Positions 531 to 45,750 of a DNA stretch of 64,000 nucleotides are shown in pieces (positions within the stretch are counted from its first letter, which is position 1; each line of letters opens with the position of its first letter). The DNA lies in assembly GCA_017499595.2 (NCBI GenBank), contig CM039006.1, positions 744,001 to 808,000 of the forward strand, in the 5' to 3' direction. The position numbers were made by a program, and so were the translations under genes. This DNA comes from Psilocybe cubensis (taxonomy: Eukaryota). The notes below the pieces were generated by a model, which was given only the letters and a program-made list of their open reading frames with translations, was not told where the DNA came from and ran no database searches.

Positions 531-613
531 TGGTCCAATCCAGGATCGAACTGGAGACCTTCTGTGTCCCTTACAGTGTAAGACAGAAATCATAACCACT
601 AGACCATTGGACC
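531..613 (-). tRNA. tRNA-Val (anticodon TAC) with 10-nt intron
   Basis: Reverse complement folds as a cloverleaf: acceptor GGTCCAA/TTGGACC, anticodon arm TCTGT-CT TAC A-[intron]-C-ACAGA, T arm TCCAG-TTCGATC-CTGGA. An oligo-T terminator lies downstream on the minus strand. Confidence 0.95.
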
Positions 614-716: not shown

Positions 717-799
717 GGTCCAATGGTCTAGTGGTTATGATTTCTGTCTTACACTGTAAGGAACACAGAAGGTCTCCAGTTCGATCCTGGATTGGACCA
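717..799 (+). tRNA. tRNA-Val (anticodon TAC) with 10-nt intron
   Basis: Same cloverleaf as 531-613, differing by one intron base (CTGTAAGGAA vs CTGTAAGGGA). Followed by a T run at 800-807 (Pol III terminator). Confidence 0.95.
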
Positions 800-7754: not shown

Positions 7755-9139
7755 TCATTGAGCAAGAGCTTCTTCCAAAAGTTTGAGAGCGACGGATGCC
7801 GAGCCATAGCAGGCAATGTACCCAAAGCCACCGTGGCTTGGGAATAAATGTCAATCAAGTGCTGATGCTTGAATGATTCTATCGGACTCACCCATAGTTA
7901 TGTACAACAGGGACGCGTCGTGTGGAAGTCTGCAGCCACTCCGACTCCAACCTCACACCTCCCTTCCTACATGGCCGGAGCCCGCATGATTCTTCAACGA
8001 TAATAGGAAGGATGTCGTCGACCGTAGGTTTCCTCTGCGCCCTGATTTCTGGGGGAGCGATTTCGGGACAGATCTCGAGAACACGTTCCAGGATATCCCG
8101 TGTCGTCTCCGGTCTCGGACGCGGGTGCCTTGACAAACTGTAAGGCAAGAACCAACAAAAAAGAAAACACATACCAGTCATCCGCCTCATACGTCCCACC
8201 AATGATCACATTCCCGCTCCTCCTCGGAATAACATACGTCCAGATCTTGCCCGGGCCTCCACTAAGCGACATGCAAAAGTCGACCCAGGGTGCATTGAGC
8301 AGCACAGTCTGCCCTCTCACAGGATACACGTCCGTGTCCTCGACACCGCCCAAATACCTCGCGCCGAGCCCAGGGCACACAACGACGGCATCTGGGAGAG
8401 GGAACCGGACGTGCGCGTCGGGTTCCGCGAAGGCGCCGGGGCCGCCGTTGATGACCTGGTTGATGTGCAGCACGGAGCCGCGGACGATGTGGCCGCCGCT
8501 GGCGAGGAAGGTGGAGAGGAGGTAGTTCAGGAAGATAGGCGCGTCGGTGTTCACAGAGTCGTATGTGATCCCGGAGATGGCGCCTGGGACGAGTTCATCC
8601 TTGCCTAGTTCGGTGTACTGGAGATATCGTGTTATTGGTGGACTGGGATTGGAAAATGATGAAGGGGGCTCACGTTTGGCATGAGACTCAACGTGTCGAG
8701 GTTTGTTGGCTCGCGATGGAATTCTTTCTGCTTTAATCTTTTGAAGCAGCCTGGTGCGTCGCCCTCGGGAGAGGATAGATCCCACATCGTTTTGAACGTT
8801 TCAATGTCGATTTCTACAGCCAAGTCAGCTATTTCCAGCGGTACGATAATTAGATTTACTTCTCTGAGCGACATCGTCCCCAGCAACGCTGACATGATGA
8901 GCACCCTAAGAAATATGAGCATCGACAGAACGTTGAGAGAGAATGACACGCACCGCAGACAGACTGGCATAAGTCACAGTCTTTGGATCCGTCGGAAAAT
9001 CCTGTGCAATAACAGTCACTTGATACCCTCCCTTTTGCTGAATCTTCAGCGCAGTGGTCAACCCTATAACACCAGCCCCGAGCACTGTGATGTGCTTGAT
9101 CCCATTCTGAGTCTGTGGTTGCGAATCAGAGCCAGACAT
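7755..9139 (-). CDS. FAD-dependent D-amino-acid/D-aspartate oxidase family protein, multi-exon
   Basis: N-terminal GAGVIGLTTA FAD motif, YPVRGQ, YVIPR, GLRPCR, and VVHNYG|HGGFGY spliced across an intron. Stop at 7755-7757 after LEEALAQ. Confidence 0.92.
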
Positions 9140-18537: not shown

Positions 18538-19931
18538 ATGCCACCATTATATCCCCTTTCATCTCCACGAAGCGACATGGAAGCAAGGAAGCTCTTTCTT
18601 CCCTTTTCTTGCTGCTTTCGACCTCTCCACCGCCGTTCTCATTCCATCCAAGACTCCGAATCACGTTCATGAACCCCCATTTCACGTCCATATTCAACCA
18701 TAGAACTTCTCACGACACACTCTCCTTCCATATTTCTCTTTCCCGCATAACTGCAACCCTTCTCCCCTAGGCGGCGCAATCCCGCCATATTCTTGTCTCG
18801 ACCCATCAGGTTTCCGACCCCATCACATCTCTCTTTCTCGCTCATCGGACACAGCATTTTTTTCTCTTTTCTTCTTGCATCGCACATTACCGCATTTGTA
18901 TTTTTACACACAATCATCATAACAACTGCATTTTTATGAAGAAAGTGATTCATATTTCGTACCCTTGTATCGCAGCGCATCGTAACTTCCATTTTTGTCA
19001 ACTTTCAAAATTGAGCTCGGCGCAGGCTCGGCAGACAAGGACACCGGACACTACACGCTCCATTTATCTCTGTACAGTGTAAAGGTACCCAAAACATGGA
19101 GAGGAAGGAAAAGTATTTAGCGAACTTTACACTGCTGAGGTTACTTAGATAATGCTCCAAAGTTGTATTTACCTTAAAATCATTTTATGTGTCCCACAAT
19201 TTACCAAAGAAGTCGTGAAATTAAAAAAATCCATGCCAATGCGCGTCTGCATGAAGCAGTCTTCCAAGGTTTTCAGTTTGTACAAGCATTTGATTATGAA
19301 GTGTTTACGAGTCCTCCTGTAGAAGAATTCGTTTTGTATCATCGACCTCCAGCCAAAATTTTGAAATGCTTATTGAGCCGGCGATCAATCGGCACGCTTT
19401 ATCGGAGATTGAATGAGCTATTTTCGCCATTTCGGCTTGAAGGTCGGTCTTTGAATTTCAGCTGCTGTCAAACGTCTATGGCTTTTCGCAGGGAATGAAA
19501 CGCTTTTTGAGCCGGTAATGGCTCGGCAAAAAGGTTGGAACTTCAAATAACTTTCTACTCAACATTGCTGAGAATTTGTTTGAATTTCAAAGGTTTCTTG
19601 TTGCTTATAGCATTAAATGCTTACTTATTTATGTAGATCTAATCAATTTACTAGTTTGTCATGGACAATTCAGAGCCAATTCAGTGACACAATTCAGAGG
19701 CAATTCTGGTCATTAGAAGCGTGGGACAACACTCAATTGCCTCAGAATCAGAATTGCTAAAGCAGCACAGAATTACAATTTTGCCTCTATGAATTCAATC
19801 TTAAATAATTTGCTCTTCTCAAAATCTGTAGTTTCTGAAGCAATTTAAAAGCTTCTTAAGGATGTTTCTACCATATGTGTTGAGAGCAACAAGCACGTGC
19901 CATAGTGCTCTACAAGTACAATGTCAGTATT

Positions 19932-20334
19932 TGTTGGAATACGGATGTTGTTACATGGTTCATTCACTCTTTTGTTTTCTTTCCTTTTCTTTCTACTTCC
20001 TGTTTTGTACTTTCACCTTCCTTATTCGACATTTGGAACACTGGATCCGAGAGCCCCTGTCCAATCACAAATCCAGTAGTCATCCTTCCCATATCGTTCA
20101 ACGCATCACCTTCGTATATTCTTCATCAGCTTCCGTAGCTACGAGCAGCTCACTTATACAGACCAGTTCTAGTTTTTGCACCTTAGTCTTTCTTCCCTTT
20201 GACTGAGGTACATTTGCTTTTATGTTGTTTCTACAAGATAGCTAATGTAGTTTACAGACTCACCGTGTGTTCAGGTTCATAATAGAGTCTTTCTTCCCTT
20301 TGACTGAGACTTACCGTGTGTTCAGTTTCCTTCA
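19932..20334 (+). repeat. 5' LTR of Copia element A
   Basis: TGTTGG...TTCA. Direct repeat of 45751-46153 with about 17 substitutions by eye, all transitions. Confidence 0.95.
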
Positions 20335-20346
20335 GGTTATGGGCCC
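20335..20346 (+). promoter_or_regulatory. Primer-binding site of element A (internal tRNA-iMet, half-tRNA type)
   Basis: GGTTATGGGCCC immediately after the LTR is complementary (with one G-U pair) to the initiator-tRNA anticodon arm GGGCUCAUAACC, as in copia/Ty5-type elements. Confidence 0.8.
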
Positions 20347-20466
20347 CAAACGCGCCTGAATCAAACAAACACACCATCAGACTCAGCTGTCAGACTCGTC
20401 TAGCATACTCTCAAGGGATATCAATTCTCTCTAGCATCAAACTCATATACACTCCATTTTGTCAAA

Positions 20467-22332
20467 ATGTTGGCCACGGCAGGGGATGTCCCTAATGCTG
20501 CCCATACAACCATCAATAATATCACAATGAGCTCTAAAATTACACCTGCAAATGCGAAAGTCAATCACATTGTCAATCTCGAGGAAACATTGAACTTCAT
20601 TGCTTGGAGAGACGATATGAGGAACATCTTAAAGGACTGTGGAGTCTATGGGCACATAGAGGGATCCGAAAAGAGAACTGCACGATACCATATGTCACTG
20701 AAACCCACAGAACCTGCAGATGACACTTTGGACGATGTGATTGCAGCCTATCAAAAGTGGTGGAGCAATGATGACAGTGCTAAAACACTGATAACTAGAA
20801 AGGTTTCAGCGCTCGTCAAATCCAATCTGAATGCAGGAGAGGACGTCACTGCACAAATGGTATGGAATCAGATAATGACCAGATATGCTCGGGTCAACAT
20901 CAACGCTCAATTTGCCATTAAAGAGAGGTTAGCATCAATCAAGCTCAAAGACTATACAGAGATTGAGAAGTACCTTGACAAATTTCGTACCGGCAGGGAA
21001 CGACTCAAAGACATGTGGGTTGATTACCAAGAAGGTGATATCATTCATCATATTATTCGAGGTCTACCATCATCGGGAGTCTGGCCAAACTTCAAACAGC
21101 TGATGATTCAGCTCTATTAGGATACGCTGGATCGAGACAAAACAGCAACAGATGAAGAACGTACCCCATCCGCACCAAATACTGCTTTAGAGAGGATCAC
21201 TGCACGACTTACCATTGAATGTCAACGTCTTGAAGCAGAAGCGGGCTCAAAATGTCACCCTCCGGGTTCCAAATACTCCAATTTCTCTAATGACAGTTGT
21301 CCCATTGCCAAGCACGCCAATAATCCAAATAGAGTGCGATGCACTAACTGTCAAAACCGTTCCCATGACAAAGATCATTGTTGGGCGAAAGGCGGTGGAA
21401 TGGAAGGCCAGGGTCCAGCATATCGAGCAGCACTGACAGCCAAGAAGACAAAATCGGTGTCTATTGCAATTGAAGCTGGCTCTGTAGAAAGTGGAGAAAT
21501 ATCCTGTGCACTCATTGAAGAATTCATTGATGGGAACGTACCAGAACCCATTGCGGCATCCGCAAATACCAGATCTTTCCTGTCAATGTCAATCCTGTTG
21601 GACTCTGGGGCAATCTCTCACATAGTCAAATCACAAGCGCTGTTCCACACGTACTCCAAGAGCGATGCTAGGAACGTCACGACGGCAAATCTAAGAACTT
21701 TAAGAACTCAAGGGGGAGGGAACATGTATACTGGATATTACTTACAAGGGAAAGACCATTAAACTCCGGCTTAACAACTGCCTCCATGCTCCGTCAGCCG
21801 CAGTAAACCTGCTCTCTGTCAGTCGCTTATACATTGCAGGGACTCTTGGTTGCAACTTTCAACCCAAATCCGGTATTCACCTCTCCAAAAGGGGCGTCGA
21901 ATTTGCTTCCGCTTCACTTATCCATGGTCTATTTGCAATGGATAATACCATGTTTGTTCCTACAAACAATAATTCATCCGTTGAACGTGCAATGTATGTG
22001 AAGGTGCCGGAAACACTCCACCTTCAACATCTTTGACTGGGACATCCTGGTGAACAAGCGACGTGGATACTAGTTCAAAGAGTCATGAAGTTAAATATCA
22101 AAGACAAAAATATCAAATGCAAACCTTGTATTGTTGCCAAACACATGGCTACCCCGCATCCGCCAAGATCACTTGGCCAGCGCGCTTATCAGCCACTCAA
22201 ACTTATTGTTGCGGACACCTGTGGCCCTTTTCCTGTCAAAACGCCTCATCACAAAGAGTTCTTTGTCGCATTCCGTTGTTCCGGGATGAAGGTAAATAAC
22301 ATACAACTTACCGCGGATAAAACGGCAGATAC
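20467..22332 (+). pseudogene. Copia gag-protease-integrase N-terminus (disrupted)
   Basis: Gag ORF 20467-21120 ends in a premature TAG. Zinc knuckle CTNCQNRSHDKDHC, protease LLDSGAISH, integrase LGHP...CKPC...ADTCGPF. Frameshifts. Cut by element B at 22333. Confidence 0.9.
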
Positions 22333-22609
22333 TGTTAGGAATTGACTTAAGTCAAGAGAGAAGAGTGCCCAAAGACCAAGTTGATATCAAAGCTGGGGTC
22401 TGACTACTGACCCCAGGACCCTATATATACATGGAGACCGGAGTAACTACTTCCCGGACCAGAGTACTCAACATATGACAACTATCAATAGATGAAACAG
22501 GAGAACAATAGACGTGGGACCGAACACAAAGATAGAACAAGGCATGACAGCGTGGAACCGTAACAGATAACGATAACGGATAGGGGTGGCACCAATACGT
22601 ATCCTGACA
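22333..22609 (-). repeat. 3' LTR of element B (277 bp)
   Basis: Minus strand reads TGTCAGG...CCTAACA, preceded by the PPT. About 7 transitions versus the other LTR. Confidence 0.92.
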
Positions 22610-22650
22610 TCACCTCCCCTCTAAAGGTCGGTGTCCCAACGACCTGGTCT

Positions 22651-23348
22651 TCACCGTGGACGGTTTGCACCAAAGACACGAGGCGGTCCACCGCCACGAC
22701 GCGCGGTCTGAATTCCCTCCCTAGGCTGAACAGGCCCGGGGCAAGAGTAACCGTTAGAGTGTTGCTGCGGAGCCCTGAGAGCGTCCACCTCCATAGGCGA
22801 ACCAGGGGCGAGCAACGAGGATGGGCTGGAGCGAGTGTCAACAGCCGTAGGAGTGGAAAAATGCGGAGAAGCCGTCCCGGAACGGGATGTCCGCGTAGTT
22901 GGGGTAGAGCTCGAGGTTGGAGTAGGAGAAGGAGGTTCAACGACGAGGGTAGGAGGGGCAGCAGTGGGCGCAGGAGGCTGTTTAGGCTTCTTGGACCTAG
23001 GGTTGCGGATGCGACGACGGGCAATCCGCTTGCCAATAGCAGAAAGAGCATCACCAACTTCACGAGCGGTGCCCCTGATAGTGACGGCACGCAAACCGGA
23101 GGTGACGACAGGGGAGACCGAGATCTTTGCATGCGAGATGTCGTGGATTTGGCGTAAGCCAGTTCCCGCGCGCCCTATAACGTGGCCAGCCTGTTCGTCC
23201 GCAATAGACAGGGTAGCGACGATCTTCTCGAGGGCGGCTTTGGTAGTAGTAGAGCGGATGGATTGGGAGTGCGGGGGCCCTGTAGTAGGGATAGAGGTAG
23301 GTGCAGCCGGGCGTTTCTTCCTAGAGGTGCGTCGAGCGCGAGGTGCGC
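22651..23348 (-). CDS. C-terminal part of element B ORF: type I KH domain plus Pro/Ser/Thr-rich tail
   Basis: KIVATLSIADEQAGHVIGRAGTGLRQIHDISHAKISVS...RAVTIRGTAREVGDALSAI (about 23035-23226) matches the KH GxxG fold pattern. Joins in frame to 41253-41455 once element C and one TSD copy are removed. Confidence 0.85.
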
Positions 23349-24977
23349 TATCATACCCCAATCCTGATTGGAGATGAGATGTTCATTTTGGATCTACACA
23401 CGACGCCCTCAACCCAAGCAGTCATTCTTTCCATAAGTCATCCACACATCTTATCTTATCAACACTTGTCACATGGAAGCCACGTTATTCCGGATCATGT
23501 CACTTCGTCAGATCATCAAGGCTATGCGACGGATCAGTCAACCATCAAACTGCATAGCTTTCTACACTGCCTTGCACAGCCGGACTGTCAACTCTATTTT
23601 TATCAATTCAATGGTCTTACTCAGCGTCAGGCTGCGGATTACTCATTCCAACTTATTTTTGGTTTGTCTTACTCATCCTTTTGTGTTTATTTATATCTTT
23701 TCTATTGTCTGTTGCGCTTTTATTGTCTTTGTCTTACCAATCTTCTATGCTTTCTGACTCATCCTTGCTTCTTTTATCTAATCTGTATTACCATTCACCT
23801 TCGTCATACACTTCTTTCTTACTCATCCTATTCATTTCTTATCTGTCGTCGTGTCGATATTGACATGTCTTATTGTTCTTGCTTATTGTTACACTTGCGT
23901 AGCCTCATTCTTGACACTTTGTACAGTATATGACTCGGTTTTCAGTAGCTTAGATTGGTATTTCGTTCACGTAGCTTTTAGTATAAAAGCTGTAGTAGAA
24001 TTACACGAAATGACAGGAAAGTTACACCCAGTCCCCACTTTCTTCAAAGCAAGTCAATTTTCATCCAAGTCAAGTCAATTTCAAGTCAATCCACATCGAT
24101 TCATTTCAATTCCAAGCTCAAGTTCAAGCCAAGCCCAAACCCAAGTCCAATTCAGTCATCAGTTCCACCCTCCGTCGAGACCAAGTTTACTTCCATTCAT
24201 CCGAAGTCATCTCGCTTTCCATTAAGAGAGGATTTCATCCGAGACCAGTCATCCTCCTCATCCAACGCCTCTTCTTCTCAGAGTTGAATATCCAACTTCT
24301 ATCCAGACCTCCAGTACTTCCCTACTTCCTCTCCTCCATTCAATCCGTCACCGCTCCTACTCTTTCTACACCTTCCAACCATCGCCGTTAGGAGTGTATT
24401 CAAGACATCCTTTCCCTCCGTCAACTCATCTGGAGCGATTTCATTCGAGACAGACTTAGTCTTTCATCCTCGATTCAGTCAATACTCCTGCGACGTATAG
24501 CTTCATTCCAAGCTTCAGAAAGATTGTCAATTTAAAGACACTTTCACCATTCTTCAAGATTCAGCCCGTTAACGACATTCCGACTCCTAGTCATCTTCTT
24601 ATCTCCCCTCGGAACGTCCCCCACTCACTTCAGACAACCCCTCTAAGATTCACATTTATTGATTTCTCATACGCAATCTACGCATCTTCTTCACGCTTTC
24701 CATATACACCCGCCATCCAATTCCACGGTTCCATCCCATTTTCGGAAGGCTTATTTACTATCGTACCCAGACGACCCGGTTATCCTCTTCTTACTATTTC
24801 GCTTTCATTACCCTTCACAATCCACACCATCCTAATCTACTTAAATCCTAGGCAGCGTCCTCCCTTAAGAAACTTAGGAGAAGGTTTCGTCCTATCCAGT
24901 CTGGACCACTCTTTCCCTGGGGTTTGTGTTTGTTGGATTACATATAGTTTATAACCAATCACAAACTTCGATCTTCA
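23349..24977 (+). repeat. 5' LTR of element C
   Basis: TATCATACC...TCTTCA, near-identical to 39624-41252 (4 differences seen). TATAAAAG at 23982-23989. Confidence 0.96.
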
Positions 24978-24979
24978 TC

Positions 24980-24996
24980 TGGAGCCCACCGCGAGG
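24980..24996 (+). promoter_or_regulatory. tRNA-type primer-binding site of element C
   Basis: TGGAGCCCACCGCGAGG starts 2 nt after the LTR. TGG is complementary to a tRNA CCA end. The cognate tRNA was not identified. Confidence 0.75.
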
Positions 24997-25172
24997 GAGG
25001 GTTAATTAGGATTTTATATTAGGAACACAGCAATCTACCACTTTATCACTTCCATTCCATCCATTTCGACTCTTTTTCTTTACAGGTTACTTCGCTTCGC
25101 TGGTCTATTCTCTAGGCAACTCTAGGCAACAATTCTAGGCGACACTTTCTGACTCTGTAACTGGTTTACGCT

Positions 25173-28100
25173 ATGACTGATTCTGGCAATCCGCTTCCAT
25201 CCTCTACTCCCACTATGGCTACTACCATCATCCAACGTACTCCTGTCGATATGCCTGTTCCTAAATCTAGTGCTGCTCCAAAATTCACTGGATCTTACGT
25301 CGACGTCAAGAATTTCTTGGATCACTGCAACCGCATTTTTGATCAGTACAATGTCACTCTCGACGATGACAAAGTACGATACATGGTTCAATGCTGCAAC
25401 CAAGAGAGCAGAGAAATCATTGAAGGTTTACCCAGCCACCATGCCAAGCAATGGGAACGACTCAAGACTGATATGCTCAAGATCTTTGATCATGCTAGGA
25501 CAACGCAGAAGTTCACGTTGAGTACTCTTCGTGCTTACGCTTTCCAACACTCCAATCTTTCTATGCGCTCTCTCGACGACTTCCGCGAGTATCAGAAGCA
25601 ATACATTCGCATCGCTGGTTGGCTTCTCAACAACAACAAGATATCCAAGACGGAATACAATCAATACTTCTGGCTAGGAATCAATGAATCCCTCCGACCT
25701 GCGCTCGAAAGCAAGATCATGGTCTTTAATCCTCATATCGATCTCTCCTCACCTTTTTCCATTGAAGACGTCACCAAGGCAGTTGAAATCATCTTTAAAC
25801 GAGACCGCTTTGACGTTGGAATCTTTGACAATCCTTCTGCACGCCCCTTCACGTCTCTTATTCCTCCAAAGGATTCGTATCCAGAGCGCTCATCAGTCTT
25901 TGACGAGATCAAGAAGTACTTACAGGAGATGTTTCCTAACATTGAGACACGCGATGCCCGTGAACGTCCATACAATCCCCCGGAAGAGACCAAGCGCATT
26001 TTTCAGGATCTAGACAAGGAAGAGAAGCAAGCGCACAAGGATGACGAAGTGGAGAACTTGATCAAGCAGATGTCGAAGCTCACCATCCATGATTCTTCGT
26101 ACGCCATTTATTATCTTCGCGCCATCAAGTTGGAACCCGCTCTTGCTAATATGCTCATTGCTCCGGCCATTATGAATCCAAGTGCACAGCCAGCTCAGCC
26201 AGTCCCAATCGCAAGTCAGTCAGCACCTCCAGCACCACGAGCACCACGTCAGTCCGCATCCGAGATCATCTGCTATGGTTGCCACCAACAAGGCCATGGA
26301 ATCAACAACTGCCCGACGCTCATTGATCTTACAAACCGCAAGCTCATCTCCAGAGATAGTAGCAATCGAGTTGTCTTCCCTGATGGATCCCGCATTATTC
26401 GCCAGAATGGAGAGTCAATCGCACAAGCAGTCCTTCGTCAACAACAGCCTCCTCCTCCTCAAGTTGCTACTACAAGCATAGCCGTATCCGAAGCATATTA
26501 TGGTCAGATGTTCAAGAACTACAGAGCCATGGTTGCAGAAGAAGAAGAGGACGACATTGGAACCTGGGATGGAGAAGACGAGTTTGAGTTTACGCTGGCA
26601 GGTCCTGGTAATCGAATCCCAACTGAAAAGCGAACACGTGCTGCACGCAAACAGGTCATGGACGCTGTGGTACCTCCGGAACCCGCGTATCTGAAAGGGA
26701 AGCGAGCGGAAATGAGTAAAGCTAAGGATTCTTCTCAGATCCCATCTATTCTTAAACGTCCGGCTAACTCTGGATTGCCAAACAACGTGCCTAGCTCCAC
26801 TTCCATTCAACCTGTCCCAATCCCGTCAATTAATCAACCTTCTGCCGAAATAAATCCATCAATTCCTGTCAAACAAGCTCAACCCAATGTCCCAATTAGG
26901 GCAAATCCAACGGAACATCCCGAGACTGCCCAACGACACGAGGTTTTTGATCCGGCCGATGATGATCAAATCATGGAAGATGTCACTCCTAGTCTAGAAC
27001 GAGGCAAATCAGTTACCAAGCCACGTGCAGCACCTCAGAAACGTGTCTCTGACATATCCCAAACTGTCGACACTATGGCCATTCTCAGACGATGCCTTAA
27101 TCAACCCGTTAATGCGACGTTCGGCGAGCTACTTGGAGTTTCAAAGGACCTTAGGACCCTTCTTATCAACAGCATCAAAGGCAAGACCCTTACTGTCGAC
27201 GAATTCAAAGCTTCATTGGCAAACAGCAACTTAAAGCTTTCCGATAAGGAAGTTCTAGACATCATTCGCAGTGCCGAAAAGGACGTACCTGTTCAATACA
27301 TGCACGAGACCAATTCAGTCGAATCCCTTCGCGCTCACAAGCCCCTTCTTCGAATCACATTAATGTGTAATGGTCACGAACTCAATGCCTTGATTGACAG
27401 TGGATCTACGCAGAACATTCTAAGCAAACAGGCTTGGAAGAAGATTGTCAAGTTGCCGATGGACAGCCGGAATACTATTGTTATGGTCGATATTCATGGC
27501 GGCAAATCCCACATGCTTGGATTCGTTGGAAATGTTCAACTTGATATTGGTACAGTCAGGACGCGTGCTCATTGCTATGTATCCGACAAAGTCCAGTTTG
27601 ATATACTCTTGGGACGTCCATGGACCCGTGACAACTATGTGGACATTCTAGAACGACCCGAAGGGACCTTCATTGCCTTCTATGACGTCAAAGATCCTAC
27701 ACGTGAGCAGAAATTCCTTGTGACACCTGATACTCAGCACGACCGGCGTTACTTCACGGATACCATTTACGACAAGACCCCCCACACAATGTTAGCACAC
27801 AACGACCTCTCCTTAGCTAATCCGGATGCCGAAGAAGGTGAAATTGAAGAAGATCTAGAACCCGGTGAATTATTGGACGACCTTCGCTATCCATCACCTA
27901 CCCCTTCCATGATCGAGTTATCTATCCTTACTAGGCAACAATCTCTGAATCGGGACGAATCTGCTAACCCAAATGAGGACTTATCCACTTCACAAGATGC
28001 ACCCTCTTTCTCTGACTCCAACTGCGAACATGACTCGACTCAGGACTCCTCTCACGGTCTCTACGCTTCCGATTATGACTCAATGTATCAAGATGACTCG

Positions 28101-29048
28101 GGAACTTCTCAATTCAATGCGACTGCCCATTATGGTCATATTTCCACACCACCTTACGATTCCACACATGAGGCCCCACAAATAGAACAGCCACCATCAC
28201 CATCTGTCAATCCGTCCATCAAATCCCACACTTCAGACAATAACGACCCACATGAAGAAGAACCAGCTGACGACGATCCAGAAATGGAACAATTGAGCTC
28301 ACCCGAAGTAGAAGCTATTCAATTCTCTTCTGACAATACTCACCTTACGGCTATGGGAATGCTCAACCCCCACTTGCGCTTTGAAGACTGGATTCTATAC
28401 GACGCCACTTATTCTTCTCCTACTCGTGTTGTTTCTGACCGAACAGGAACGGCCTTTGTCCATTATGTTTATCCGCAGAGAGACAGCCATATAAACTTGA
28501 CGACGACTCCAACTATTCTACACTTCAGTCGCACTGGTATCTCGTCTCAATCTAACCACTCTGCTTCAGTCAGTGCCTATCCAATGGGCCAACGTCACTC
28601 AGCATCCTGGACTCATTTTATTCCCCAATCCATTCGCTCTCAAAACGCTTCTTCTATTCCCCAACCTCATTCCCGAAATTCTGCTCTTCCAGAGACGCCT
28701 CTTTCGATTATGATTCACCAAGAAACACGTGTATCATCGACGGTCACCGCAAATGTAGACGAGCATCATCGAGGCCCGAAAGCTTTGGTACATCCTCTGC
28801 GAGTAGCCCACGACAGTCCGAAGGAGCCATTAAACAAGGATGAAGAAGAGCTACGAATCGCTCAAAATGGCAAAGAGGTCGACCACAATTCTTCCCTTTT
28901 ACCTCTTCCAATAACCAGCACAATGCACGAATCGCGAGCTTCAAATATGGACGATGGAAACGAATGGTACTATCAGTATGGAGAAGAAAGTCCCTTTTGT
29001 ATTGACAACACGGAAGAGCATCCCTTGGACGCCAACACATTGTACTGA
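25173..29048 (+). CDS. Element C gag-protease ORF (1291 aa)
   Basis: APKFTG gag start, zinc knuckle CYGCHQQGHGINNC, aspartic protease ALIDSGS...ILLGRPW, long acidic/Ser-Pro extension. Confidence 0.9.
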   Translation: MTDSGNPLPSSTPTMATTIIQRTPVDMPVPKSSAAPKFTGSYVDVKNFLDHCNRIFDQYNVTLDDDKVRYMVQCCNQESREIIEGLPSHHAKQWERLKTDMLKIFDHARTTQKFTLSTLRAYAFQHSNLSMRSLDDFREYQKQYIRIAGWLLNNNKISKTEYNQYFWLGINESLRPALESKIMVFNPHIDLSSPFSIEDVTKAVEIIFKRDRFDVGIFDNPSARPFTSLIPPKDSYPERSSVFDEIKKYLQEMFPNIETRDARERPYNPPEETKRIFQDLDKEEKQAHKDDEVENLIKQMSKLTIHDSSYAIYYLRAIKLEPALANMLIAPAIMNPSAQPAQPVPIASQSAPPAPRAPRQSASEIICYGCHQQGHGINNCPTLIDLTNRKLISRDSSNRVVFPDGSRIIRQNGESIAQAVLRQQQPPPPQVATTSIAVSEAYYGQMFKNYRAMVAEEEEDDIGTWDGEDEFEFTLAGPGNRIPTEKRTRAARKQVMDAVVPPEPAYLKGKRAEMSKAKDSSQIPSILKRPANSGLPNNVPSSTSIQPVPIPSINQPSAEINPSIPVKQAQPNVPIRANPTEHPETAQRHEVFDPADDDQIMEDVTPSLERGKSVTKPRAAPQKRVSDISQTVDTMAILRRCLNQPVNATFGELLGVSKDLRTLLINSIKGKTLTVDEFKASLANSNLKLSDKEVLDIIRSAEKDVPVQYMHETNSVESLRAHKPLLRITLMCNGHELNALIDSGSTQNILSKQAWKKIVKLPMDSRNTIVMVDIHGGKSHMLGFVGNVQLDIGTVRTRAHCYVSDKVQFDILLGRPWTRDNYVDILERPEGTFIAFYDVKDPTREQKFLVTPDTQHDRRYFTDTIYDKTPHTMLAHNDLSLANPDAEEGEIEEDLEPGELLDDLRYPSPTPSMIELSILTRQQSLNRDESANPNEDLSTSQDAPSFSDSNCEHDSTQDSSHGLYASDYDSMYQDDSGTSQFNATAHYGHISTPPYDSTHEAPQIEQPPSPSVNPSIKSHTSDNNDPHEEEPADDDPEMEQLSSPEVEAIQFSSDNTHLTAMGMLNPHLRFEDWILYDATYSSPTRVVSDRTGTAFVHYVYPQRDSHINLTTTPTILHFSRTGISSQSNHSASVSAYPMGQRHSASWTHFIPQSIRSQNASSIPQPHSRNSALPETPLSIMIHQETRVSSTVTANVDEHHRGPKALVHPLRVAHDSPKEPLNKDEEELRIAQNGKEVDHNSSLLPLPITSTMHESRASNMDDGNEWYYQYGEESPFCIDNTEEHPLDANTLY

Positions 29049-31460
29049 CTATCTGGACGGTGCATGGACATCAGCTTGCTTCCTCAACGCCCTCTCTTTG
29101 TTCTCCGATCCCCTCAATTTTTCTTTGTCACCTTTGCTGTTGCTGGTGTTTCTTCTTCCTCATCGTTATGCCTTTATTCCACCTCCCATTTTATTTCCAC
29201 ATTTTGCGTTTCTCTTTTCCATTTCACGGACACTTATGTAGATTTTTCATTTGTGCAACGAGTTCTTGAATACCTCCACTTTTCTTTTATGTGCCTTTTC
29301 CTCACATTCACACTCTCAATGGCAACTCCACGCCATACAACCTTTTCCTTTACCTTTTATTTTCATTTTCTTTCCACTTTATCCATTTGTATGTACGTCG
29401 ACCGAAAAGTCGTTAAACTAACCTTTATTTATTCCTCCCTTTTATTTATTTGTTCTACCCCCGCTTCACCACTTCAGTCCGCAAACAAATCCTCAGGTCA
29501 CCTATTGCAGAGTTCTTGGAGAAACACGCGCAACCTCCCAAAGGAATGCTATACGGAATCTCTATCTCCAATATACACCACCATCACGCCTCCAATACAC
29601 CTCGAACTCCTACAGAATCGGGAAGGGCTTCATCTTATCCACAAAGAGCGAAAAATCAAGCTTACGGACAAGATAAGAAGGACGACCACTCCATTACCTC
29701 TGATGGGTCAAGACCTACAGAAATTTCGGATAGATCAAAGCATTTATGCGAGATCATGGTCACTCAATTCAGATATTACTGCTAAACCCACCGTCAACCA
29801 AACTAATTCGGCAAGGTCGTCAAGCTCTCCTACAATTGGTTTTGTATTCACTGCCGCGTCAGGATCGACACTATCAACCTTCCAAGCCTCCATGAATCAA
29901 TTCATATCACCTATTCTTTCCCCCTCTTCTGCCAATACAGCCTATAAACGAGTCGATCGGAAAGTTAGACCTATAAATCGGGTTACTCCAGAATCGGCCA
30001 AAGTTATACGACGAATTCCTGTTGATCCCTTATTATCTCTCCCACCTCTCCCACTCCATCCCCCTGCCTTTACGCCAACAACCAGACTCACCCTTGAACG
30101 CATACAATCAATGAACATTAACGCCAACAAATTCCTATGGCCGGAAGAAGAAAAGCTTTTCCTTCATATTCTTAAACTCAATGAACGCTCACTCGCTTTT
30201 CATCAGTCCGAACGTGGAACATTTTCTGAAGAATACTTCTCTCCATACATCTTTCCTGTTGAGGATCACGAGCCCTGGGTAGTCCGAAATATTCCTATTC
30301 CACCCGGCATCAAGGATCAAGTTATCAGTCTCTTACGTGAAAAGATAGACGCTGGAGTATACGAACCAAGCCAAGCTCCGTATCGCTCTCCAATTTTCTG
30401 GGTCAAGAAGAAGACATCTGGTGCTATCCGTCTAGTTCATGATCTGCAGATTCTTAACTCTATTTCCTATCGCGACGCAGGAGTTCCTCCAGTTCTTGAC
30501 GACTTTGTGGTTCCCTTTGCTGGTTATTCTATTTACACGGTCTTTGACTTATATTGGGGATATGACGCACGCAAAATCCATCCTATGAGCAGAGATCTTA
30601 CCACATTCCAGTCGCCTATTGGACCTCTTCGACTTACTTCAATGCCTATGGGATATACGAATGCAGTAGCGGAATTTCAAGCCTGTACAACCTTCATCCT
30701 TCGTGACGAGATCCCTCACGTAGCCAATGTCTTTATCGACGATGTTCCTATCAAAGGCCCTCCAACACAGTACTTAGACGAGGACGGCAATCCAGAAACA
30801 CTTCCAGAAAATCCAGGAATACGACGATTTGTCTGGGAACACGCTCAAGATGTTCATCGAGTTATGCACCGCATGGGATGTGCTGGTGCTACATTTTCTG
30901 GACCAAAGACTCAGCTCGCTCAGCCTAAAGTTCTTATCCTTGGACAGTTATGCACTCCGGATGGACGACTACCCGATCAGAGCAAGATACAGAAAGTCAC
31001 TGATTGGCCACGACCAAAGTCTGTTCACGACATCCGATCCTTTCTAGGTCTATGCGGAACAATGCGTGTTTGGATCAGAAATTACTCAGCCCTTGTCCGA
31101 CCACTCACAGAACTCTATCGTAAGGACGAACCCTTTGTCTGGACTCAACAACGAGAAGACTCTTTCCAAACTCTCAAAGAAATCATTTCCAATCCTCCTG
31201 TTCTCACTTCTATTGACTATTCATCCGATCGCCCAGTTATTCTTGCCGTGGACACTTCTCACATTGCTATTGGTATTATTCTCTATCAGCTTGACAAAGA
31301 AGGCATCCGACGACCTGTCCGCTATGGTTCTATCTCACTTAATCCACGAGAAGCACGATACAGTCAGCCCAAGCTTGAGTTATATGGTCTTTTCCGTGCT
31401 CTTCGAGAATTCCGCCTCTATCTTATTGGAGTCAAGAACCTCTACGTTGAAGTCGACGCC
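29049..31460 (+). CDS. Element C pol, part 1 (hydrophobic segment, RT, RNase H N part), in frame with the gag-protease ORF
   Basis: RT motifs FDLYWGY, MPMGYTNA and VFIDDV. RNase H LAVDTS...YSQPKLELYG...VEVDA, cut by element D. Confidence 0.9.
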
Positions 31461-31633
31461 TGTTAGAGTTCCCTCTAACGTAGACACACACACGTGCCTG
31501 TAGTCACATATCACACAGTATTTGTAGACACACCCGTAGCTACGTAGCCTCAGTTCCTTCTTTGTTAGCACACCCAACACGTTCTGGTCCTTCGTCTCTC
31601 TCTCCCGCCTCGTCTCCGGGTCTCCTCCTAACA
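31461..31633 (+). repeat. 5' LTR of element D
   Basis: TGTTAG...CTAACA terminal inverted repeats. No difference seen versus 37714-37886. Confidence 0.97.
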
Positions 31634-32276
31634 TCAAGAAGGAACTCTAACACATTCAAAACATCCTCTCTCATCGCCTTTTGGCATTTCAATACCACCG
31701 TTTCCCAAACTGCCTGGACTACCTCGTTCCCCTTCGATCCTGCCCATCCAGCAGGATATCGAAGCCTGTACCGACACTTGTGACCGCTACTCTTGGCAAT
31801 TATTTTTTTTGCAAAGAGACCTCTTGTTGCACGAAGAAACCCTGCGTATTGCTTCCAACCAGGGTGCATCTTTTGATACCCTTCGGCGACTTACTGCTGC
31901 TGTTATAGACTGTCAACGGTCAATCTCACATACCAGAGACCTTCTCGCTTCCGCTGAAAGACAGTTGCGTTACCTACACGACCAGGCTGATCGCGTTCGC
32001 GACCTACAAGATTGTCTGGCTACTCTGTCTCGCCGCATTGATAATCTGGCTTTTACCACCTCTCTTAGCCCTGCTATTTTGTCTGGACTTCACGCCCGCC
32101 TTGACGATATTCTCAGCTCTCCTCTCTTCTCCAGGTCCTCTACCCCAGACAGCTTACCTGACCTTGAACCCTCCGATTAGAAGCGCATATATTCACCCTT
32201 TTGGCGCATACACCCACCCTCTCTGTTTTTTTCTCTTTCCTTTTTTTAATTCGCTTCTCGCTTATCGTTTGCACTC

Positions 32277-33461
32277 ATGCCTCCCGGAAAAAGTAAAGGT
32301 CGTTCGGTCTCCCCCCGTCGTGGTCGTGACGGTAGTGATGACGACACTGTGTCCCGAATTGACCCTGCCATTATCGCTCTCATTAAGGCTAGCCAGGAAT
32401 CCAATAAAGAAACTATGAAAGATATTCTCGAACTGTCGCGTATACAAGCCGAAACTATGTTCAAATCATTCCTCGCGTTACCCCAACTCCAAACCTCTAC
32501 CCACTCCTCTGCGACTACCTCTACCGCCCGCTCTGGTGATTCACGCGCTTATAAGGTGCCCTTTCCAGGTGCCTTCGACGGCTCCTCTGATACTGTCGAA
32601 GACTTGCTGGCCTCATGGCGTAACTTTTTTCACTCCGACCCCGAAGCATACAAAACCACTGATTCCAAAGTACGCACCGCTCTCAGTTCTTTCAAGACCG
32701 GCACGCCCGCTGTCTGGCGTAACCAGCTCATTGAAGAGCTAGAGTCTGGGCAATGCGTCTTAACCAACTGGTCCGACTTTGAGGAGCGCGTGAAAGACTC
32801 CTTCCTGTTCCATTTCTCGCAACAACGCGCGGCACGCGAGATCATGTGCATCCGTCAGAACTCCACGCCCACTCAAGAGTTCATTATTATCTTCGAGAAC
32901 CTTGCCTTTCGCTCCAAGTTTAACGACGAAGCGTTGATCCAATGCTTCAAAATGGCCTTGGATAAGCGTATTATGGAGGAGATTGGACGAACACACCGTG
33001 AGATGCCCACATTCGCGGAATGGAAGAGTGCCGCAATCTTGATGGCTCACAGACTGCGTGAGACTGATGCCACGGTGACTCCGGTCGTCAACACCACCGC
33101 CACCTGGCGTCCTCCCCCTTCTTTCACCTCCACCCCTTCCACTGTTCAAAAGTCTAGCAACCCCCGCCCCGCTGCTCCTGCCCCCAACGCGACTCTACCT
33201 GCAAACATCTCCGCTGCTCCGAATCGACGTGCCGCCCTGCCCTGCTTTAACTGCGGCGTATTTGGCCACTTCATGCGAGTCTGCCCCAAACCCAAAGATC
33301 TCGAATTCCAACGCAAATCACGCGCAAAACTGGAACGAGCTCGGGCCGTCCTCGAGTGCTTTGATGCTTTGCCTGATGACGACAAGCATGAGATTCGATG
33401 CGTTGATGTTGACGAAAGTGCCTTGTTTGATGATTCGGATTTTGTTTCTTGCGTCGAGTGA
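32277..33461 (+). CDS. Element D gag (394 aa)
   Basis: Retrotransposon capsid-like region (PGAFDG...IRQ...FIIIFE) and zinc knuckle CFNCGVFGHFMRVC. Confidence 0.92.
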   Translation: MPPGKSKGRSVSPRRGRDGSDDDTVSRIDPAIIALIKASQESNKETMKDILELSRIQAETMFKSFLALPQLQTSTHSSATTSTARSGDSRAYKVPFPGAFDGSSDTVEDLLASWRNFFHSDPEAYKTTDSKVRTALSSFKTGTPAVWRNQLIEELESGQCVLTNWSDFEERVKDSFLFHFSQQRAAREIMCIRQNSTPTQEFIIIFENLAFRSKFNDEALIQCFKMALDKRIMEEIGRTHREMPTFAEWKSAAILMAHRLRETDATVTPVVNTTATWRPPPSFTSTPSTVQKSSNPRPAAPAPNATLPANISAAPNRRAALPCFNCGVFGHFMRVCPKPKDLEFQRKSRAKLERARAVLECFDALPDDDKHEIRCVDVDESALFDDSDFVSCVE

Positions 33462-36400
33462 GTAGTACGTCCTCGCCGCTTCTGTACAACAACCCTGTAA
33501 TTACTCCCAAATTGCATGTTGCATTGTCTCCAAAATCCGTACCTCTGCCCGTGTTACCTGTTTACGCGACCCCTCAACCTTCATTATCCAATTCTGTATT
33601 GACTCCTGACAAGCCCTCTTCTTCAACAACATCACCCAACTCCGACTACCCGACACCAACACTCCTGCCCGCGCACCCACAACCTCCAACTATGGCACCC
33701 GATTGCATTCCATATTCAGACCTCTTTTTATCCTGTCCTGAGGATGATCCACCAGAGCTGCAAGCCCCAGATGCCTCTGATGATTCGGATGAAGATTCGC
33801 CAACCAAGCCTGCTCAACAAACCTCCGCCCACGATGATGCATCTGTCTCTATGACACACGATGCAAGTCCACCACCGGCCCCACGCGACTCTCTACTTTG
33901 CAGCCCGCCCGTCGCTGACCACACAGACTGCCCGCCTTCAATCCCTACACCTGTCCGCACCGTCCTGTGCAACTTGCGCCGATTACGCAGCACGCCTTGG
34001 CGAACCGAGAGCCTGCTCAAATCCTGGGCCCCAAAGGAGCGTTGGGACGACATTGACGATGATCTGATTGCTGCTCTTTGCGATCTCCCCTGGACCGACG
34101 CCGCCAAAGTCCTCCAGCAGCTCAAGAAGCCCCGCGACTACATCTCCCGCATGGGGAGTAAATGCCTTGACATTCCAATGTCGGCTGCACCCCCAGGCTC
34201 GACCTCTTTGGTGTCGCTGAAAGCGCTCTTAGACAGCGGTGCCACTGGTTGTTACGTGCACTCCGATTTTGTCAAACTCAATGGATGGGTGACTGAGCGG
34301 CTGCCCCACCCCGTTAGCGTTTACAATGCAGACGGAACTCGCAATGCCAACGGTGCTATCACAGATGTTGTTTACCTTGTCATCCGCATTGAAAACCATG
34401 TTGAGCGACTCCGCCTTTCAGTCACCAACACGGGATCATCTTCCCTCATCCTCGGGCACTCCTGGCTCTGGTTCCATAATCCGCTTGTTGACTGGCGAGA
34501 GGCCAAGCTCTGCTTTGCACGCTGCCCCACGTCCTGTGGTGCTGACGTGCTGCCGACTTCGCACCCTGATGGCGAAACCGTGAATGTTTGCCGCGAAGGA
34601 CCCCAGCTCCGTGAAGACGACATCTTTGATGACAGCCCGGGCCCCTTCACGCCGGTCTCTGCTGCGGAATGGGCTGACGCCTTTGCTGGTGAACTTGCCG
34701 ATGGTGAATCGATGTGCGCGGTTGACCTCAATGAGTTCACGTCCGAACAAGTCCATGGCTCATGCGACCACCGCATTTCTCACTTTTTGCGAACTCAACG
34801 TGAAGCAGCTTCATATCCCGACCGCTACCTGAAGGAATTTGCACCTGTTTTCTCCAAAGAGGAGTTTGACGAGCTCCCACCCCGTCGCCCATGGGATCAT
34901 GCTATTAACCTGAAACCAGATGCAAAGTCGTTCAAAGCAAAGCCGTACCGTCTGTCGCCCGCTGAAACCTCGAAGGTCAAGGAATGGATAGAAGAGGAAA
35001 AACGCACTGGCCGTATACGGGACTCCATCTCTCCCTATGCCGCCCCTTTCTTCTTCATCCAGAAAAAGGATGGCTCACTGCGCCCTGTGCAAGACTACCG
35101 ACGCCTGAACGATATCACGATCAAGAACCGCTATCCATTGCCGCTCATCTCTGACCTCATGGACAAGCTTAAAGGCGCGAAAGTATTCACCAAACTTGAC
35201 GTCCGCTGGGGTTTCAATAACATTCGTATCAGGGAAGGCGATGAGCACAAGGCTGCCTTTATCACGGAGTTTGGACTTTTTGAGCCTCTTGTAATGTTCT
35301 TTGGATTGACAAACTCACCAGCTACCTTCCAGAATATGATGAACGATCTGTTCAAGGATCTCATTGCTGGCGGCCATGTCGTGATATATATGGATGACAT
35401 CCTCATCTTCACTGATGATGTCCAGTCCCATCGACATCTTGTCCGCAATGTCTTGCAGATTCTGGAGGACAACAAGCTTTATCTGCGGCCAGAAAAGTGC
35501 TGTTTTGAGCAGGACCGTGTGGAATACTTGGGCGTCATTGTCGGCCACGGGAAAATGTCCATGGATCCCAAGAAAGTTGACGCTATCACCTCTTGGCCAA
35601 TCCCGCGCTGTCGTAAGGACGTCCAACAGTTCCTCGGTTTCGTCAACTTCTACCGTAGGTTTATCAAGAACTTCTCCCGCATTGCCGCTCCCCTGCATGC
35701 CCTGGGTGGTTCGGCGCCTTGGGTATGGGACAATTTGTCAACATCCGCCTTCAACGAGCTCAAATCCGCCTGCGCTTCACACCCGGTGCTACTTCTTCCC
35801 CGCGACGGTGCCCCATTCCGCATAGAGGCAGACAGCTCTGGATACGCAACCGGCGCGGTGCTCAGCCAATTTGTTGACAATTCCTGGCAACCGGTCGCGT
35901 TTGCTTCAAAAGCCCTCAGTCCCGTTGAGCGCAACTACGAGATACATGACCGCGAACTACTGTCAATCATGAGGTCTCTCGATGACTGGCGACGCTACCT
36001 CCACGGCTCCGATTCTCCTGTTGAGATCCACACCGATCACAAGAACCTTCAGTATTTCATGACCGCTCAGAAATTGAACCGTCGTCAGGCTCGCTGGTCC
36101 CTGCAGCTCGCTGAATTCGATTTCGTACTCGTCCACAAGCCAGGCCCGACCATGATCTGCGCAGACTCGTTGTCCCGCCGCCCCGACTACGATAAAGGTG
36201 TTGGCGACAACGAAAACGTCACCTTACTGCGCCCAGAACACATTCGACGTACTGCTGAATGCTCAATTGGGGATGACCCCGTCCTGGCTGACATTCGAAC
36301 TCACCAGCACCAAATCACTGAAATGTGGGAAAAGCACAAGAACCTGCCTGGCTGGTCCCTCCACGACGGCTTGCTTTCATGGCATAACCGAATCTTTGTG

Positions 36401-37702
36401 CCAAACAAAGGCAACTTGCGTCAACGAATACTCGCCGACTGTCATGATCACCAATCCGTAGGCCACCCTGGCCGGATGAAGACCATGGAACTCGTCCTGC
36501 GCGACTATTGGTGGCCGTCACTATCAAAAGACGCGAAGCGTTACGTTGATGGATGCCCCACCTGTCAATCAACTAAGCCTCTGAGGATGGCGCCCGCGGG
36601 CCTACTGACCCCCAACGAAATCCCTTCCTCCAATTGGGAGATCATTTCCTGTGATCTCATCGTGGACTTACCTAAATCTCGCGGCTTCGATTCGATCTTT
36701 GTCGTCGTCGATAGACTCTCAAAAATGGTTCGTATCATCCCATGCAAAAAGTCAATCACTTCTGAGGGTCTCGCGCGCCTCTTCCGCGACCATGTCTGGA
36801 AAGACTTCGGACTGCCACGACGCATCATCTCCGACCGTGGTTCAATCTTCCTGTCAAACTTTACTCGGGCCCTCAACGACCTGCTAGGCATTTCACAGAA
36901 CGCGTCCACCGCATTTCGACCTCAAACAGACGGACAAACTGAGCGCGTCAATCAAGAAATCGAACAATACCTACGGATCTTTGTGAATAACAGGCAAAAT
37001 GATTGGGTGGAATGGCTTGCATGCGCCGAATTTGCTATCAACAATAAGATTCACTCGTCCACTGGCTTCTCGCCCTTCTTCCTAAACTATGGCTCCAACC
37101 CCCGCCGAACCCTGCAACCCGCACGCCTCTCGGACGACCGTGTCCCCAAAGCTCTTGAATTCGCCTCTCAAATGGATTCCCTCGCGAAGGAATCCGCTTC
37201 AGCGCTAAACCTCGCCGCTGATGCAATGAAGCGATCCTATGACACCTCTCACCGCGCTCCACCCGTCTTCAATGTTGGCGACATGGTGATGCTCAGCGCC
37301 TCCGACATCAAGTCCTCACGTCCGTCTAAAAAGCTCGATGTTAAGCGTCACGGACCTTTTCCTGTGACGAAACGCGTTGGCATCCAGTCTTACACCCTCG
37401 ACCTACCGGCCTCGTGGTCGATCCACCCTACTTTCCATGTCTCTAAACTCTCCCGTTTCATACCAGCAGAATTCGATTCCCAAACTTCACCCGCGACACC
37501 AACACCTCCCCCCGCGTTACCACCCCCAGACATTGCAAGTGTGCTCGGCCACAGGGCCCTGCGCAGTGGAACACAGTTCCTCGTGCTGCTCGATGGCTGC
37601 ACAGAGGAAGACGCTTCGTGGTCAAGCCACTCATCCTTCCCTAACTCTGAAGTACTAAACAATTACATACGCCTCCACAACATCCCGGACGCCCACCTTT
37701 AA
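33437..37702 (+). CDS. Element D pol: protease, RT, RNase H, integrase, chromodomain (-1 frame relative to gag)
   Basis: ALLDSGA, KLDVRWGF, YMDDIL, EADSS...NYEIHDRELL, HHCC zinc finger, D,D-35-E core, GPF module, and a C-terminal chromo-like segment (IASVLGHR...FLVLLDGCTEEDASW). Confidence 0.95.
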   Translation, partial: GFCFLRRVSSTSSPLLYNNPVITPKLHVALSPKSVPLPVLPVYATPQPSLSNSVLTPDKPSSSTTSPNSDYPTPTLLPAHPQPPTMAPDCIPYSDLFLSCPEDDPPELQAPDASDDSDEDSPTKPAQQTSAHDDASVSMTHDASPPPAPRDSLLCSPPVADHTDCPPSIPTPVRTVLCNLRRLRSTPWRTESLLKSWAPKERWDDIDDDLIAALCDLPWTDAAKVLQQLKKPRDYISRMGSKCLDIPMSAAPPGSTSLVSLKALLDSGATGCYVHSDFVKLNGWVTERLPHPVSVYNADGTRNANGAITDVVYLVIRIENHVERLRLSVTNTGSSSLILGHSWLWFHNPLVDWREAKLCFARCPTSCGADVLPTSHPDGETVNVCREGPQLREDDIFDDSPGPFTPVSAAEWADAFAGELADGESMCAVDLNEFTSEQVHGSCDHRISHFLRTQREAASYPDRYLKEFAPVFSKEEFDELPPRRPWDHAINLKPDAKSFKAKPYRLSPAETSKVKEWIEEEKRTGRIRDSISPYAAPFFFIQKKDGSLRPVQDYRRLNDITIKNRYPLPLISDLMDKLKGAKVFTKLDVRWGFNNIRIREGDEHKAAFITEFGLFEPLVMFFGLTNSPATFQNMMNDLFKDLIAGGHVVIYMDDILIFTDDVQSHRHLVRNVLQILEDNKLYLRPEKCCFEQDRVEYLGVIVGHGKMSMDPKKVDAITSWPIPRCRKDVQQFLGFVNFYRRFIKNFSRIAAPLHALGGSAPWVWDNLSTSAFNELKSACASHPVLLLPRDGAPFRIEADSSGYATGAVLSQFVDNSWQPVAFASKALSPVERNYEIHDRELLSIMRSLDDWRRYLHGSDSPVEIHTDHKNLQYFMTAQKLNRRQARWSLQLAEFDFVLVHKPGPTMICADSLSRRPDYDKGVGDNENVTLLRPEHIRRTAECSIGDDPVLADIRTHQHQITEMWEKHKNLPGWSLHDGLLSWHNRIFVPNKGNLRQRILADCHDHQSVGHPGRMKTMELVLRDYWWPSLSKDAKRYVDGCPTCQSTKPLRMAPAGLLTPNEIPSSNWEIISCDLIVDLPKSRGFDSIFVVVDRLSKMVRIIPCKKSITSEGLARLFRDHVWKDFGLPRRIISDRGSIFLSNFTRALNDLLGISQNASTAFRPQTDGQTERVNQEIEQYLRIFVNNRQNDWVEWLACAEFAINNKIHSSTGFSPFFLNYGSNPRRTLQPARLSDDRVPKALEFASQMDSLAKESASALNLAADAMKRSYDTSHRAPPVFNVGDMVMLSASDIKSSRPSKKLDVKRHGPFPVTKRVGIQSYTLDLPASWSIHPTFHVSKLSRFIPAEFDSQTSPATPTPPPALPPPDIASVLGHRALRSGTQFLVLLDGCTEEDASWSSHSSFPNSEVLNNYIRLHNIPDAHL

Positions 37703-37713
37703 GAGGGGGGTGA

Positions 37714-37886
37714 TGTTAGAGTTCCCTCTAACGTAGACACACACACGTGCCTGTAGTCACATATCACACAGTATTTGTAGACACACCCGTAGCTACGTAG
37801 CCTCAGTTCCTTCTTTGTTAGCACACCCAACACGTTCTGGTCCTTCGTCTCTCTCTCCCGCCTCGTCTCCGGGTCTCCTCCTAACA
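37714..37886 (+). repeat. 3' LTR of element D
   Basis: Direct repeat of 31461-31633, preceded by the PPT and followed by the TSD. Confidence 0.97.
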
Positions 37887-37891
37887 ACGCC

Positions 37892-39565: not shown

Positions 39566-39623
39566 TCTATCCCCCCCTTCCTTCCGCAACCGGGGACGGT
39601 TGATTTCTCAAGTTTGGGACGGA

Positions 39624-41455: not shown

Positions 41456-41546
41456 AGAGTATAGTAGGTGGGGGCAAGGTAGAGTGGAGTAGACGAGCGC
41501 TGCAGTGGGTAGAGTACCAGGGCAACGTTGGGTAGCTTCGATATGC

Positions 41547-45743: not shown

Positions 45744-45750
45744 GGGGGCG

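Follow-up and report, generated by a model that had tools for sequence, protein, structure and literature searches.

The window analysed here is a stretch of 64,000 nucleotides (64 kb) of DNA from Psilocybe cubensis. Host genes were found at several places in it: a 12-exon gene of the ChAPs family (59458-62391, plus strand), the product of which has 100% identity with a protein of Psilocybe cubensis, a phosphoribosyltransferase gene (58218-58862, plus strand), an ion-channel fragment (55713-56855, minus strand) and an FAD oxidoreductase gene (7994-8800, minus strand). The identity of the ChAPs product bears out the agaricomycete source assumed in the earlier note. Two tRNA genes lie in divergent orientation at 531-613 (minus strand) and 717-799 (plus strand). 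Each scored 52.3 bits against Rfam, both were called tRNA-Cys(ACA) by ARAGORN in bacterial mode, and they are probably intron-containing eukaryotic tRNAs.

The copia element and its nested insertions

An LTR retrotransposon was identified as a member of the Ty1/copia type by its protein domains. The gag ORF (20467-21120, plus strand) matched PF14223 with an E-value of 5.6e-14, the reverse transcriptase remnant (42719-43699, plus strand) matched RVT_2 (PF07727) with an E-value of 3.9e-39, and Pol_BBD was found in the ORFs after gag. The element is degenerate, with an in-frame stop of the gag ORF at 21118-21120. When the gag protein was searched in the protein database, one longer relative was found, a Psilocybe cubensis protein of 427 aa with 73% identity. 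The same protein had no confirmed relatives among metagenome or viral contigs, and a 23-mer spanning the LTR end and the PBS had no matches among metagenome and viral contigs.

The copia body is split by a nested block of the Ty3/gypsy type (22329-41805, plus strand), which contains nested direct repeats (D3, D1 and D4) and RVT_1, RNase H, integrase and gag domains. The nesting is of the Russian-doll kind: the repeat pairs 22329/41543, 23349/39624 and 31461/37714 enclose gypsy-type ORFs for gag, protease, reverse transcriptase, RNase H and integrase, including an apparently intact pol of 1417 aa at 33449-37702. No rve domain was detected at E<=0.01 in the ORFs flanking the nested insertion, which lie in degenerate sequence interrupted at 22329-41805. 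In the final 1.7 kb of the body, ahead of the 3ʹ LTR (44081-45782), open frames occur on the minus strand only, with lengths of 125-158 aa. The frames of 158, 144 and 137 aa showed no Pfam match, and this part may be foreign or antisense sequence within the copia element.

The 5ʹ LTR (19932-20334, plus strand) has the termini TG...CA and was aligned over 403 nt with the 3ʹ LTR (45751-46153, plus strand), which shares its layout at an offset of 25819 and ends in TA instead. A PBS-like sequence (20335-20347, plus strand) lies directly 3ʹ of the 5ʹ LTR, and a purine-rich tract (45742-45750, plus strand) lies directly 5ʹ of the 3ʹ LTR. The PBS-like sequence may be complementary to the anticodon arm of initiator tRNA-Met and not to its 3ʹ end. 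This would imply a half-tRNA primer, such as Drosophila copia and yeast Ty5 use. Between the two LTRs, 17 of the 403 positions differ, every difference being a transition, and the context is CpG for only four of the 17. At the 5-bp flanks of the element, where a target duplication would be expected, the sequences are unlike each other (GTATT versus GGGGG), and the two LTRs may derive from two separate elements.

Two leader copies and an intron-like segment in the LTR

Both LTRs carry the same series of parts, all on the plus strand: a first block of 23 nt (E1), a 50-nt segment with GT..AG ends, a second block of 17 nt (E2), a filler of 11 nt, a joined E1E2 of 40 nt that is the same leader without the 50-mer, and the last 9 nt of the LTR. 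In the 5ʹ LTR, with the position in the 3ʹ LTR in brackets, the upstream copy consists of E1 at 20185-20207 (46004-46026), the 50-mer at 20208-20257 (46027-46076) and E2 at 20258-20274 (46077-46093). The filler is at 20275-20285 (46094-46104), the joined copy at 20286-20325 (46105-46144) and the last 9 nt, the U5 end reading ...TTCA, at 20326-20334 (46145-46153). The earlier note had described this tandem of an unspliced and a precisely joined copy in the 5ʹ and the 3ʹ LTR, and sequence and alignment bore out the description exactly.

E1 of the upstream copy is identical to 20286-20308 at all 23 positions, and E2 is identical to 20309-20325 at 16 of 17. In the 3ʹ LTR, as in the 5ʹ LTR, the joined copy matched E1 plus E2 at 39 of 40 positions, and the single mismatch is a transition private to the LTR in question, at 20312 in the 5ʹ LTR and at 46134 in the 3ʹ LTR. 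Since the mismatches are private to each LTR, the joined copy and E1 plus E2 would have been identical at 40 of 40 positions at the time of insertion, with E2 matching at 17 of 17. A window-wide scan for a block, an indel of 30-200 nt and a second block in tandem gave two matches in the 64 kb, which are these two LTRs, and the scan found no other LTR in the window with a comparable layout. The tandem of unspliced and joined copies is not a chance pattern, and the structure is real and unusual.

In both LTRs, the 50-mer starts with a GTACAT donor, contains the branch motif CTAAT (in GCTAAT) 12 nt before its end and closes with a CAG acceptor (in TTACAG). The combination of GT..AG with CTRAY at 6-30 nt from the 3ʹ end was present in 28 of the 63950 plus-strand 50-mers of the 64-kb window, and in 17 on the minus strand. 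Three registers are possible for the indel between the two copies, as AG is the end of E1 as well as of the 50-mer, and GT..AG results in only one register. Even when the three registers are allowed for, these counts make it unlikely that the intron-like 50-mer arose by chance.

The ChAPs gene nearby has 11 introns, with which the 50-mer was compared; its exons were rebuilt from the Psilocybe cubensis protein, and the introns are those of a gene model and may not be RNA-verified. They are 47-69 nt long, three of the 11 are exactly 50 nt, and all 11 end in AG. The donor starts with GTAC in four of them, CTRAY is present in five at 5-17 nt before the end, and G occupies position +5 in 10, the exception being GTATTT. 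The 50-mer has A instead of G at +5 in both LTRs, suggesting that its donor is weak. By these sequence features, the 50-mer fits host spliceosomal introns in length, ends and branch motif, with the exception of +5. The claim of the earlier note that size, donor, branch point and acceptor fit fungal introns thus agrees with the 11 local introns, except that the donor lacks the G at +5.

An origin without any intron would be a tandem duplication at the DNA level, followed by a 50-nt deletion or insertion through slippage at the 2-nt AG microhomology, so that the resemblance to an intron would be coincidental. The shared AG ends with their three possible registers and the donor without G at +5 are in line with this course. 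However, GT..AG with a placed branch motif occurs in only about 0.04% of 50-mers, or about 0.1% with three registers allowed, 50 nt is the modal length of the local introns, and the coincidence of the 5ʹ edge of the repeat with a promoter-like +1 position, described below, would be left unexplained. We regard an origin without an intron as very improbable. It is instead quite probable that the LTR leader holds a real intron that was spliced and reverse-transcribed, a point common to the reading that we favour and to the two-step course considered below.

The 50-mer was also considered as a miniature transposon, and a terminal inverted repeat was not seen by eye. The predicted fold of the leader RNA was not unusual (z -1.04; 28 of 200 shuffles folded equally well). 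Within this fold, which is not significant overall, the 50-mer is predicted to form a hairpin at 20205-20252 between its donor and branch-site regions, and such pairing could weaken splicing.

The two edges of the repeated unit were then considered. Position 20185 (46004 in the 3ʹ LTR), the first base of E1, is the only position in the LTR with TATA at -33..-23 together with a YYANWYY initiator; the same pattern occurs at 29 of the 64000 plus-strand positions of the window, in a test that was devised once the motif had been seen and that uses the initiator consensus of animal promoters. The pattern is suggestive of a transcription start at the first base of E1. With this predicted start, U3 would extend over 19932-20184 (plus strand), and the TATA at 20155-20158 would lie at -30 to -27. 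At the other edge, the joined copy and the 9 nt behind it form the LTR terminus, which abuts the PBS-like sequence, and the downstream unit would therefore span the content of a minus-strand strong-stop cDNA on spliced RNA. If the duplicate was made from a cDNA end at the cap site, a repeat edge at the promoter-like +1 position is also what would be predicted.

Outside the 5ʹ and 3ʹ LTRs, the filler sequence does not recur in the window. At its junction with E2 stands the 8-mer TTCAGGTT, which is also found at the LTR-end/PBS junction at 20331 and occurs four times in the window. The shared 8-mer is suggestive of the filler being a remnant of the PBS, and we put little weight on the match because the repeated end of E2 accounts for five of the eight bases. 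A decayed poly(A) tail and the start of U5 were rejected as sources of the filler: about 5 of 11 positions match the downstream sequence by eye, and a local alignment of both post-E2 stretches was equalled in score by 3127 of 5000 shuffles. As the filler differs from the sequence 3ʹ of the joined copy, an end-to-end transfer of the simple kind, from one RNA to another identical to it, would not yield the exact product.

Copies of the LTR in another strain

Evidence on the LTR family was obtained from raw DNA reads of another strain with the same species label (run X12), 693 of which aligned. Their likeness to the window was at least 99% for 7 reads, 95-99% for 147, 90-95% for 216 and below 90% for 323. 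The reads differed from both window LTRs at fixed sites, such as 19954, where C>T was present in all 43 reads. In 24 reads, the sequence departed from the LTR immediately behind 20334 and ran into other flanks (agreement 0.65), confirming the LTR boundary. The fixed differences and the other flanks indicated that the reads represent paralogous copies. Just upstream of the 5ʹ LTR, the sequence at 19787-19897 is itself repetitive, with an X12 depth of 73-171 compared with about 11 at 19898-19934, and 71 reads diverge past 19883.

Because the paralogous copies carry the layout, it went through several transposition cycles. The earlier note had argued for propagation from the presence of the layout in both LTRs; this argument does not hold, since one cycle of reverse transcription builds both LTRs from one template (PMC6894440). 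That the layout itself was propagated is supported instead by the paralogous copies at other loci in the other strain.

A single joint was listed for X12, from 20295 to 20196 (16 reads; longest shorter side, 72 nt). Its order is intron-E2-filler-E1-intron-E2, with an extra unspliced unit. No listed joint leaves out the 50-mer, the 101-nt unit or the 51-nt insert, and neither a single-unit LTR nor a fully spliced LTR was detected among them. The depth of X12 reads was 80-98 over 20194-20304 compared with 43-62 over U3, which fits an extra unit in some copies.

These reads bear on a course of two steps, in which the unspliced leader was duplicated by misaligned strand transfer or unequal recombination, and only the downstream intron was later lost through a partly spliced genomic RNA or through recombination with spliced cDNA. 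The 16 reads with two unspliced units in tandem indicate that unspliced duplications do occur in the family, and intron loss by reverse transcription is textbook behaviour of retroelements (PMC12786077, PMC2923131). However, no listed X12 joint has a unit with the intron next to the last 9 nt, and the extra unit more likely belongs to an array of three units with the joined copy at its end. The filler is likewise left unexplained by a plain tandem duplication, as it is found neither 5ʹ of copy 1 nor 3ʹ of copy 2. Moreover, two events would be needed, together with selective splicing of one of two identical introns. We consider the two-step course unlikely.

The X12 reads also contained variants within the repeated blocks. 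A 1-nt deletion in the C-run of E1 was present at both E1 positions, in 29 of 53 reads at 20195 and in 33 of 86 reads at 20296, where three-unit arrays may have contributed some of the reads through their middle E1. In copy 1, an insertion in E2, found in 14 and 16 of 101 reads at 20268/20269, had no counterpart in the joined copy among the changes listed. Two diverged lineages among those listed align only from 20304 (33 reads) or from 20318 (32 reads); their E1E2 has diverged but is joined and lies beside U5, and in one of them a filler-like stretch precedes it. Given these lineages, the layout may be old. An old layout would sit less easily with the identity at 40 of 40 positions, unless the two copies have been homogenised. 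From another organism (organism D, run X10), four short records aligned to 20304-20362 and 20656-20850, a range that does not reach the upstream copy.

Homogenisation is part of a further explanation, which holds that the LTR intron is functional. Alternative splicing in R-U5 would give two RNA classes, and concerted evolution, favoured for instance by a position of both copies in R, would keep the joined copy the same as copy 1 in its spliced form, which would provide homology for minus-strand transfer. Every RNA form would then share this homology, and the family could keep an LTR intron over many cycles. The explanation is in agreement with the layout being kept in all LTR copies detectable in the other strain, with the same E1 deletion at both E1 positions, with the joined E1E2 retained beside U5 in diverged lineages, and with an identity of 40/40 at insertion although E1 differs strongly between lineages. 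On the other hand, the covariation of the E1 deletion is insecure, as the reads at 20296 may partly be from three-unit arrays, the E2 insertion of copy 1 has no listed counterpart in copy 2, and the leader fold is not unusual. Joints of the form E1E2-filler-E1E2, which this explanation predicts, were absent among the joints listed. A maintained device of this kind seems improbable to us. The design proposed in the earlier note, in which splicing creates the repeat for minus-strand transfer, gained no support: in addition to the absence of such arrays among the listed joints, we found no scheme in which splicing would make the R homology and the LTR would still be regenerated.

Proposed origin of the layout and known systems

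The explanation that we favour, with a probability of roughly 55%, is that an aberrant strand transfer between co-packaged RNAs, spliced and unspliced, left the layout as a fossil that was then inherited. The R-U5 leader would be present twice in tandem, upstream with a real but weak intron and downstream as a reverse-transcribed spliced leader. The ancestral LTR would have had the order U3-E1-intron-E2-9 nt, and its transcripts would have begun with the first base of E1. Within a single particle, a spliced full-length RNA would have served as the template for minus-strand strong-stop cDNA, yielding E1E2 and the 9 nt, from cap to PBS. This cDNA would not have paired in register with R, but would have been joined through the 11-nt filler to the unspliced leader or R end of the co-packaged RNA. 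After this out-of-register first transfer, synthesis would have continued into U3, and plus-strand synthesis would have brought the composite into both LTRs. The enlarged LTR would still have been replication-competent and would have been passed to later insertions, in which the internal 23-nt repeat of E1 could have caused further misalignment and arrays with an extra unspliced unit. Co-packaging of two RNAs and inter-molecular transfer of the first strand are established for LTR elements (PMC6894440, PMC2923131). A strand-transfer fossil from spliced and unspliced RNA ends had been the first alternative of the earlier note, and it is favoured by the fit to local introns, by the repeat edge at TATA and Inr, and by the 9 nt to the PBS. 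Less in line with it are the donor lacking G at +5, the filler, and the X12 reads, among which the listed joints gave no single-unit ancestor. The layout of the leader is probably without function.

To our knowledge, the known introns of LTR retrotransposons are internal, and retroelements are expected to lose sense-strand introns. Drosophila copia and BARE are LTR retrotransposons that also have internal sense-strand introns. Among plant LTR elements, Ogre and EVADE are described as intron-containing exceptions in a review (PMC12786077). As in Ogre, EVADE, copia and BARE, the intron here would survive in a retroelement with the unspliced RNA as the replication template, and the splice sites are probably weak. 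Unlike in those elements, where the intron lies internally and yields subgenomic mRNAs, the predicted intron here lies inside the LTR leader (R-U5) and has a spliced DNA copy adjoining it. No report of a natural intron located inside an LTR was found in searches of open-access text.

An HIV-1 study reportedly concerns aberrant or misaligned strand transfer in reverse transcription. The proposed event resembles aberrant strand transfer in retroviruses and Ty elements, (PMC6894440) in that a cDNA end reaches a wrong acceptor, perhaps on the other co-packaged RNA, and an LTR or leader is rearranged. Unlike the known strand-transfer errors, which are deletions, duplications and recombinants of one RNA form, the donor and acceptor here would differ by splicing, and the product would be a transmissible LTR variant. 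The exact removal of an intron is also the signature of spliced RNA and reverse transcription in processed retrocopies and in the retrotransposition assay based on intron loss (PMC2923131, PMC12786077). Processed retrocopies are at a separate locus, in contrast to the intron-less copy here, which is a 40-nt tandem partner of its unspliced parent inside the LTR. Intron loss by reverse transcription and errors of strand transfer are already known processes, and the proposed event would draw on both.

The LTRs of other elements contain tandem repeats of enhancer or U3 sequence, which are plain duplications in U3. The repeat described here is similar to these in having short tandem units that vary in number among copies, as seen from the extra unit in the X12 reads. 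It differs from them in that its units begin at the predicted transcription start and differ from each other by an intron.

If the capture of a spliced strong-stop cDNA is the correct explanation, this LTR would be a rare natural record of spliced and unspliced full-length RNAs packaged together, in a copia element of a fungus. It would also indicate that a strong-stop cDNA captured out of register can still yield a transmissible element. The leader, which is compact at 150 nt, would be suited for testing the interplay of splice-site weakness, start site and extent of R in reverse transcription.

Downstream of the element, a tRNA gene lies at 46193-46264 (plus strand), with 47.6 bits for the Rfam tRNA model and an odd Tyr/ATA anticodon in ARAGORN. 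It starts 39 bp past the end of the 3ʹ LTR, which places the copia element directly upstream of a Pol III gene, as is the case for targeted Ty elements in yeast.
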